From Christensenellales bacterium (GTDB lineage Bacteria; Bacillota; Clostridia; Christensenellales; UBA1242): a stretch of 24,000 bases of DNA. This document shows positions 10,085 to 10,747 of this stretch, in pieces; positions within the stretch are counted from its first letter, which is position 1; each line of letters begins with the position of its first letter. A program made the translations under genes and the position numbers. The DNA lies in assembly GCA_050943075.1 (NCBI GenBank), contig JBMNOM010000007.1, positions 1 to 24,000 on the forward strand, written 5' to 3'. Under the pieces are notes generated by a model. That model was not told the origin of the DNA and ran no database searches. It saw only the letters and a program-made list of their open reading frames with translations.

Positions 10085-10113
10085 TTGCATTATTTTTATT
10101 GTAGTGATATAAT
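10085..10113 (+). promoter_or_regulatory. sigma-A promoter with extended -10, driving the large ncRNA
   Basis: TTGCAT (10085-10090), 17-nt spacer, TGATATAAT (10105-10113). The predicted TSS is near 10120. Confidence 0.6.
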
Positions 10114-10120
10114 AACTTTC

Positions 10121-10690
10121 GATTAGAGGCGCAGTATTCTAGTCATGAAACCATGTCAGGAAGATGCCAAAAGAGCATCGAAGGGCATATCGATGAAGTT
10201 TCTTGTGCTTGCTTTGGTTGCCCAAACCGGGGTGTGTGCTGGAAGTTAAGATTTTTGGGTAGGCTATAACGGCATATAGCCAGATTCCCAATTATCGTGG
10301 AGACCTACTTTAGTGCTAGATTTATCTATCCACTTTATAGGAGATGAACCTGCATTGCGGTTAAAGCTGTGTGCAGAGTAGCCTGCTTTGAGTGAGGGCT
10401 GGGGATAACAAAAAAAGCTAGTGATTGTTGCTGGCCAGCGACGATTGCCAAGCATTGTTTGAAACATTTTCTTGCAAAAGAAGCTAATGATGTGTGTTTT
10501 GTGTTTAGGAAAACTTCTAGACTGTTGAAGGAAACTTCAGGTATAGTGGGGATTATAGTGTGGTCTAAGTGGCGATTCGGTGTATGCGCCGGCTTAAAAG
10601 GAAACTGCTCGAACGGCGACGGCGAGTGCAAGGCGTCGGGGAAAACCTACCGAACCTATGCCGCAAGGTTTACCTACTGTGCTGCCTCTA
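10121..10690 (+). ncRNA. ole: large structured non-coding RNA, about 570 nt; candidate OLE (ornate large extremophilic) RNA
   Basis: The block is G+C-rich (67/120 G+C by hand count over 10561-10680, versus 10/60 over 10801-10860) and has no SD-led ORF. It has its own promoter and terminator.

Structure seen:
- End-closing helix: AGAGGCGCAGTA (10125-10136) with TACTGT-GCT-GCCTCT (10675-10689).
- Nested hairpin: GGCTATA/TATAGCC (10262-10281) inside TTGGG/CCCAA (10255-10291).
- An 8-bp stem at 10212-10232 with three G-U pairs.
- GTTGCT-GGCC-AGCGAC (10427-10442).
- GAAA-capped TTGAAG/CTTCAG (10525-10540).
- CGACG/CGTCG (10617-10638).
- AACCT/AGGTT (10644-10670).

The G-U pairs are only valid on the + strand. 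The context (oapA-like gene downstream, then argR-recN) matches my recollection of OLE loci. The confidence value is for a structured RNA; the OLE class itself is about 0.55. Confidence 0.7.
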
Positions 10691-10718
10691 AACATTTAAA
10701 AAAAATCATTTTTTTCTT

Positions 10719-10747
10719 CAACCTCTTTTTAGGGGTTGTTTTTTTAT
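10719..10747 (+). terminator. intrinsic terminator of the large ncRNA
   Basis: Stem CAACCTC (10719-10725) / GGGGTTG (10732-10738) with one U-G pair, loop TTTTTA, followed by a T8 run. Confidence 0.7.

Follow-up and report, generated by a model that had tools for sequence, protein, structure and literature searches.

A 24,000-nucleotide (nt) stretch of DNA from a Christensenellales bacterium (contig JBMNOM010000007.1, positions 1 to 24,000; called the window here, at its full length) carries at positions 10110-10704 of the + strand what is almost certainly (we put the probability at about 0.97) a gene for OLE (ornate, large, extremophilic) RNA, accompanied by its partner gene oapA. OLE is a structured non-coding RNA of about 600 bases found in anaerobic Gram-positive bacteria, and in Halalkalibacterium halodurans the OLE particle helps cells withstand cold, short-chain alcohols and excess Mg2+ and live on poor carbon sources. 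The first-pass annotation of this DNA, made from the letters alone, had suggested an OLE-class RNA at this place, with an undescribed large RNA as its fallback, and had proposed a covariance-model comparison with OLE and other large RNAs. When the whole window was compared with 4227 Rfam families using cmscan, the OLE model RF01071 was the sole match, scoring 390.9 bits (E = 9e-112, against a gathering score of 50) on the + strand and covering the full model (positions 1-616 of 616) with no truncation, which bears out the class call and excludes the fallback. There is no counter-evidence whatever to family membership: the window holds an ordinary full-length copy of a described RNA that a default Rfam scan identifies.

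Judged by length and G+C richness only, the large-RNA classes could not be separated at the outset, and we weighed the possibility that the block is some other large structured RNA, known (ROOL, GOLLD, HEARO, raiA) or new, whose likeness to OLE goes no further than size and context. A relaxed scan of positions 9900-12400 (E <= 1) returned no other RNA family of note beyond OLE, with no match to RNase P, signal recognition particle (SRP) RNA, ROOL, GOLLD, HEARO or raiA, and searches of the window for tmRNA and tRNA found none, in agreement with the annotation's remark that signatures of tmRNA, RNase P and SRP RNA are missing. All nucleotides that are invariant in the alignment of OLE homologues are kept in the window copy, including the blocks GCAGUAUUCUAGUCA, GCCCA, GGCAU, GUAGCCUG, GCAAAAGA, CUAGACUG and GGGAAA. 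Since RF01071 alone matches, over its full length, we give a class other than OLE practically no chance. ROOL, GOLLD and raiA-motif RNAs share with OLE that they are large, highly structured non-coding RNAs whose biochemistry is unexplained, and self-assembly into homo-oligomers is known for OLE as well as for ROOL and GOLLD (PMC12286853); unlike the window RNA, they show no sequence or structure match here and lack an OapA partner, and ROOL and GOLLD are phage-associated, unlike the OLE context of the window. The composition of the block stands out from its surroundings, with 44% G+C in the OLE match versus 33% in the whole window and a profile that climbs from ~0.19 to ~0.48 near position 10120 and returns to ~0.19 past ~10720; the hand counts made earlier (67/120 at 10561-10680 and 10/60 at 10801-10860) are exact. 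The host also fits the anaerobic or extremophilic Bacillota in which OLE is expected, being a member of the Christensenellales whose window genes recur on contigs of biogas-fermenter metagenomes and include the sporulation genes spoIVB and ftsW/spoVE.

To evaluate the fold we aligned 71 OLE sequences (the window copy and 70 relatives) with MAFFT, counted the pairs projected from Rfam plus the terminal helix P1, and used as controls 500 shuffles and the same structure slid by 1-3 columns. Standard pairs occupied 83.1% of cells, compared with 70.0% after shuffling and ~45% after sliding, and the covariation score was 0.426 versus 0.191 (shuffled) and 0.12-0.16 (slid); in 123 of 156 pairs both partners vary, and none of the 500 shuffles reached the observed values. 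The proposal that the helices be examined for covariation in related loci is thus answered by strong covariation of the OLE fold. On the window sequence itself, 135 of the 150 projected consensus pairs are canonical or G-U, so that the earlier count of at least seven helices falls far short of what is present, and a single-sequence fold gave z = -3.3, with P1, P12, the arch helix and the downstream terminator all in the minimum free energy (MFE) structure.

These data also bear on a protein-coding reading, in which one of three open reading frames (ORFs) in the block would be real and the RNA structure incidental. Frames of 67, 98 and 104 aa are indeed present across the block, two on one strand and one on the other, lying, in this order, at 10264-10467 (-), 10335-10631 (-) and 10459-10773 (+). 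As the annotation had remarked, they overlap one another and lack a Shine-Dalgarno (SD) sequence, none being found within 25 nt upstream, and two begin with TTG. The annotation had named a conserved coding signal across the block as grounds for abandoning the RNA; such a signal was looked for and none was found, as comparison with 17 close homologues revealed no excess of third-position change (0.33/0.25/0.32, 0.34/0.37/0.35 and 0.34/0.43/0.43 at codon positions 1/2/3) and 107-151 indels that are not multiples of three versus 9-13 in-frame ones. Flat codon-position rates, frame-breaking indels and the 390-bit covariance-model match, together with the compensatory changes in 123 pairs, effectively refute the coding reading, which we consider extremely improbable. 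In practical terms, ~640 bases to which gene callers assign three spurious ORFs can be annotated cleanly as an OLE RNA gene.

The multi-helix OLE architecture closed by P1 is observed directly for the window RNA, which resembles OLE of Halalkalibacterium halodurans and Clostridium acetobutylicum in its length of ~600 nt, its invariant blocks and its helices, P1 to the P12-P15 domain (helices between P2 and P9 carry a number here only where the description in a paper fixes it). The P1 stem (named in PMC3413148) pairs its 5' strand UUAGAGGC (10123-10130) with its 3' strand GCCUCUAA (10684-10691), thereby closing the whole RNA; it comprises 8 Watson-Crick pairs, 7 of which covary, is paired in 87.7% of cells and is found by covariation and in the MFE fold alike. 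A long P3-type hairpin with the invariant GCCCA loop (10199-10245; Rfam and covariation) has 20 pairs, of which 14 covary, and is 93.9% paired. Many of its G-U or U-G pairs are kept in 58-70 of the 71 homologues, which fixes the transcribed strand as + and upholds the claim that several stems need strand-specific G-U pairs. The apical loop of the long arch, L9.3, holds the palindrome GGCC at 10433-10436, recognised from sequence and alignment as the kissing-loop site of the dimer; in the alignment this loop stays palindromic while varying (GGCC, GUAC, GCGC, AGCGCU, GGAUCC, GGGCCC), the same behaviour that Kretsch et al. describe (PMC12286853). The window thus shares the palindromic L9.3 loop with the model species at the sequence level, and dimerisation itself is predicted by analogy. 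The GAAA-capped hairpin named earlier is present at 10526-10539 (UGAAG-GAAA-CUUCA) and coincides with an Rfam helix.

The 3' domain (P12 to P15, 10540-10683), delineated by Rfam projection, covariation and RNAalifold, is framed by P12 (10540-10550 with 10673-10683; 97.9% paired, 10 of 11 pairs covarying) and contains a projected 5-bp helix (10559-10563 with 10661-10665), P12.2 (10576-10581 with 10649-10654; 99.1% paired), P14.1 (10607-10627, an Rfam helix of 10607-10615 with 10620-10627 and a GCGA loop at 10616-10619) and, from projection and RNAalifold, P14 and P15 (GGGAAAACC). Two pairings proposed earlier hold in part. The pairing of the ends (10125-10136 with 10675-10689) stands in its outer part, which is P1, and fails in its inner part: CAGUA (10132-36) with UACUG (10675-79) is 43% paired, no better than shuffles, and was rejected; the invariant CAGUA (of the GCAGUAUUCUAGUCA motif) would compete for the 3' strand of P12, which covaries with 10540-10550. 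Likewise, of the two crossing helices offered as a pseudoknot, CTCG/CGAG (10608-11 with 10623-26) is real as part of P14.1, capped by the GCGA tetraloop. The crossing helix CGACG (10617-21) with CGUCG (10634-38) is not conserved (22% paired, no covariation); its CGACG belongs to the GCGA tetraloop and the inner P14.1 stem, and its CGUCG to the 3' strand of P14. In the window copy GCGCC (10586-90) can pair with GGCGU (10632-36). As a separate observation, OLE RNAs of Oscillospiraceae (for example L006, L013 and L021) carry an extra G+C-rich hairpin of ~23 nt right after the long GCCCA hairpin (alignment columns 151-173), where the window and the Rfam consensus have UUAAG only.

The window RNA lacks hairpin P13, and this deletion is observed directly: GUAUG alone (10582-10586) links P12.2 to P14, the cmscan alignment places 0 nt where the model has 17 nt, and the P13 region is 9-10 nt long in the window and 16 of the 70 relatives versus 27-30 nt in the 54 others. 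P13 is not universal in the family. The P13-less relatives include Caccopulliclostridium, Onthoplasma and several unnamed Clostridia and Bacilli metagenome-assembled genomes (MAGs), and in the 17 P13-less sequences RNAalifold has P12.2, P15 and P14 (the last bearing P14.1 with its GNRA loop) meet in a three-way junction that covaries, unlike the four-way junction of the model species. OapB of H. halodurans has its primary binding site in P13, a hairpin with a GNRA loop and a bulge of one nucleotide (PMC7936274). Absence of P13 does not bar OLE membership, as its loss is described in variant OLE RNAs: loss of the OapB site and shorter P7-P9 stems define variant 1, which is commonest in uncultured TANB77 Clostridia, and these largely lack OapB and OapC (PMC11332333). 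With its docking hairpin lost, the particle of the window lineage is probably without OapB; by analogy it probably works without that protein, or via the weaker P14.1 GNRA site alone.

Could the window copy be a decaying or non-functional remnant? In H. halodurans both OapB binding and the function of OLE depend on P13, which is missing here, and defective OLE genes have been reported in genomes that lack OapA (PMC11332333). Against decay, oapA is intact and conserved in the window, the promoter and every invariant nucleotide of the RNA are retained, and the bit score equals that of relatives (390.9 versus 392.8 for the copy of the closest relative, an uncultured Clostridia MAG, L001). Moreover, the clean P13 deletion is common to 16 other species of several genera in which P12, P14 and P14.1 still covary, and the P13-less form is described as a functional variant class of hosts without OapB (PMC11332333). 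We therefore hold a remnant to be very unlikely and regard the window RNA as an intact P13-less OLE. It agrees with variant 1 of Fernando and Breaker 2024 (PMC11332333) in lacking the OapB-binding nucleotides at P13, in having shortened hairpins in the P7-P8 region and in its uncultured anaerobic Clostridia host known from metagenomes; it differs in that its P9 arch is full length relative to the Rfam model, whereas the P9 of variant 1 is described as shorter. The two hairpins after GUGGAGACC are much shorter in the window than in the Oscillospiraceae copies, variant 1 being compared through its verbal description only. A different truncation appears in a Bacilli MAG (L070, 9425-9955), whose 531-nt OLE (276.5 bits), missed by single-sequence nhmmer, is without the two hairpins that match window positions 10304-10376 and fits published variant 2, which is without P7 and P8.

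The unnamed 217-aa gene downstream of the RNA (11026-11679, +; SD AAGGAG at 11015-11020) is, from its sequence features, homology and linkage, an oapA homologue encoding OLE-associated membrane protein A. The protein has more than 5000 homologues of ~200 aa and a Lys-rich N-terminus, as well as about four hydrophobic segments (about 42-63, 65-98, 134-152 and 157-182, by Kyte-Doolittle hydropathy only). Its DxxxD motif reads D133-V-I-G-D137, with D133, G136 and D137 invariant in 29 aligned homologues; DxxxD is described as distinctive of OapA, and size, motif, weak CNNM similarity and hydrophobic segments all fit the published description (PMC11332333). No Pfam or NCBIfam domain is matched at threshold; the CNNM family PF01595 stays below it (E = 0.0072, 16.4 bits versus a cut-off of 28.4), and precomputed PF01595 matches exist on many homologues. 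In contrast to CNNM, MpfA and CorB proteins, the window protein is without CBS or CorC domains, the defining difference of OapA. A sequence-profile search for relatives of solved structure gave none at E <= 1. The resemblance of OapA to CorB reported in the literature is structural only. In the GTDB species representatives, even the best relative of this OapA homologue has no more than 53% identity.

By published accounts, OLE and OapA nearly always occur as a pair. Partner-gene linkage is directly observed in our sample of 80 loci from species-representative genomes that encode an OapA relative: OLE lies directly upstream on the same strand in 76, 75 of them detected by nhmmer and one (L070, at the 276.5 bits given above) by Rfam. 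One of the remaining loci is without upstream DNA, and three (L009, oapA at ~5602; L023, ~10067; L077, ~5573) contain no OLE in the locus at the Rfam gathering score or by profile nhmmer at E <= 10. In L023 oapA stands ~110 nt past ORFs that we take to resemble xseA-xseB and is followed by argR-recN-spoIVB; given that assignment, this would be the canonical setting minus the RNA. In L080 two identical-scoring OLE copies (8406-9064, + and 2479-3137, -) lie inverted on one 11.5-kb contig, probably a palindromic assembly artefact and not a true duplication. The earlier recognition of a neighbourhood with a membrane-protein partner and argR-recN proved sound, since OLE-oapA-...-argR-recN recurs in dozens of related loci. 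The window shares with the model species an oapA gene downstream on the same strand, argR-recN beyond it and an anaerobic spore-forming Bacillota host.

Upstream of the RNA, a putative sigma-A-type promoter (10085-10113, +) abuts P1 as in the model species, with a -35 TTGCAT (10085-10090), a 17-nt spacer and an extended -10 TGATATAAT (10105-10113) whose TATAAT core is at 10108-10113. The annotation had identified it at the right place and misstated the spacer, writing N17 in front of TGATATAAT where the arrangement is TTGCAT-N14-TGATATAAT. The -35 agrees with TTGACA at only 3 of 6 positions, and this weakness is why a consensus scan did not list the promoter. In relatives an extended -10 box stands 4-12 nt before P1, the promoter of L001 reads TTGACA-17-TATTAT with TG, and a proximal promoter next to P1 has been demonstrated by experiment in Bacillus halodurans (PMC3413148). 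From this layout we infer a transcription start near 10120, ~3 nt before P1. The intrinsic terminator read earlier as a hairpin and T-run at 10719-10747 (+) is there, appearing both in a terminator scan and in the MFE fold, with a stem at 10719-10738 (8 pairs, 4 of them G-C, UUUU loop) and a run of T7. The primary transcript likely extends from ~10120 to ~10747, both ends being taken from sequence. The closest syntenic relative, L001, keeps the OLE promoter and has no such terminator; we did not use terminator counts in relatives made by a strict regular expression, as this expression missed the window's own G-U-containing terminator.

The placement of OLE immediately upstream of oapA, as first described, is right in order and strand and wrong in "directly". 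The oapA start comes after a gap of 334 nt, counted from where P1 ends on its 3' side, versus a median of 44 nt in 71 loci, only 3 of which exceed 200 nt. This gap comprises the terminator, an AT-rich spacer (10748-10948, ~16% G+C, no credible ORF) and a second promoter, found by scan and presumably serving oapA (10950-10977, +), with TTGCAT at 10950-10955 and the extended -10 TGATATAAT at 10969-10977; the terminator, the AT-rich gap and the separate promoter before oapA all set the window apart from the model species. No credible gene or RNA family was found in 10748-11025 or in the intergenic region 11680-12324. A scan also placed a terminator-like hairpin after oapA (11700-11723, +). The OLE and oapA promoters share their hexamers; a recent promoter duplication was considered as their source and rejected, the best match being just 19 nt at 79% and of low complexity.

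This arrangement raises the question whether the RNA acts mainly in cis, as a leader or attenuator of oapA working through the terminator at 10719-10747, instead of as part of a trans-acting ribonucleoprotein. OLE and oapA lie on the same strand, the oapA start is 20-100 nt past OLE in most relatives, which makes co-transcription common, and a terminator between them could in principle be regulated. Such a role is hardly probable, however, as the oapA gene of the window, 334 nt downstream, comes with a promoter and an SD of its own, the terminator is absent in L001 and is thus not a conserved part of a device, and a 600-nt structure with ~25 conserved helices and dimer contacts goes far beyond what known attenuators need. 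Furthermore, OLE is stable and abundant and binds OapA in B. halodurans, with a half-life of ~3 h (PMC3413148, PMC12265935), its expression being driven by the proximal promoter (PMC3413148).

In the working account that follows from the trans-acting OLE assignment, the RNA would be made from its own promoter at 10085-10113, starting near 10120 and ending at the terminator at 10719-10747, and would fold into the multi-helix architecture of the family with P1 closing its ends. It would bind the four-helix membrane protein OapA, made from the separate look-alike promoter, to form a membrane-associated ribonucleoprotein, and would dimerise via its palindromic loop, here GGCC at 10433-10436. The dimer contacts, including L9.3, are conserved (PMC12286853, PMC12265935), and the OLE particle helps cells grow when alcohol, cold, Mg2+ or the carbon source puts them under stress (PMC10898510, PMC11332333); in the window lineage, binding to OapA, a membrane location, dimerisation and a role in stress are expected by analogy with these systems. 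This account of how the RNA works draws on homology to the model species, and the start site and the action of the terminator are predicted from sequence. The MAFFT alignment is unreliable in the variable stems, where pairing reaches only 40-65% (P9.x and P14), so that the exact register of P14 and other details of variable stems in the window copy are uncertain.

The literature already covers the OLE class with its partner, P1, proximal promoter and gene neighbourhood, as well as the P13-less variant; mildly new here are only the arrangement of terminator, spacer and second promoter and the relocation beside ftsW. For OLE research the window thus adds one more P13-less example with an unusual terminator and second promoter between ole and oapA, and compact OapB-independent versions, whose existence was already known, could suit structural or reconstitution work on the unresolved 3' domain. 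Whether uncoupled transcription, loss of the main OapB site and a new neighbourhood amount to a Christensenellales OLE particle that is organised differently is a tentative idea that we think somewhat less probable than its opposite. If it is true, separate transcription would let RNA and protein levels be set independently, the move of ole-oapA to a place beside murE-mraY-murD-ftsW would fit the proposed link of OLE to cell-wall or sporulation biology, and the lineage could be a natural minimal OapB-independent OLE system.

On the + strand the gene order in the window is murE, mraY, murD, ftsW/spoVE, OLE, the 217-aa ORF, argR (12325-12786), recN (12836-14512), spoIVB, a 206-aa membrane ORF, smc and ftsY, argR and recN being the usual downstream neighbours of ole-oapA. 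In most loci argR-recN follows downstream, usually after ~4 kb, and a subset resembles the window in having argR directly after oapA. Two features are unlike the model species: the upstream neighbours are murE-mraY-murD-ftsW and not xseAB-ispA, and the dxs-tlyA-nadK block is not present between oapA and argR. According to the literature, the genes associated with OLE have to do with the cell wall, sporulation and DNA repair, and ArgR is mentioned as a candidate for a protein that partners the RNA (PMC12265935); the rearranged context is within this range. L001 has the genes between rnhA and the 206-aa ORF in the same order as the window, and a penicillin-binding protein gene further on. Between the oapA terminator and argR lies a 645-nt AT-rich stretch (11680-12324) with no credible ORF and no Rfam match, at the place where most relatives have ~4 kb of genes, expected to be dxs-tlyA-nadK.

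Two neighbouring genes deserve mention in their own right. The longest ORF for ftsW/spoVE (8665-9933) encodes 422 aa from a GTG start and overlaps murD by 140 nt, while public calls on identical contigs start the gene at ~8911, giving a 340-aa product with a 37-aa ORF ahead of it; in family scoring the protein narrowly passes the FtsW cut-off and does not reach that of SpoVE. The 206-aa multi-pass membrane protein encoded after spoIVB (16348-16968, +), which has no Pfam or NCBIfam match, is conserved beside spoIVB in L001, L019 and L052 and on the opposite strand in L002-L004, and may be a divergent sporulation membrane protein.

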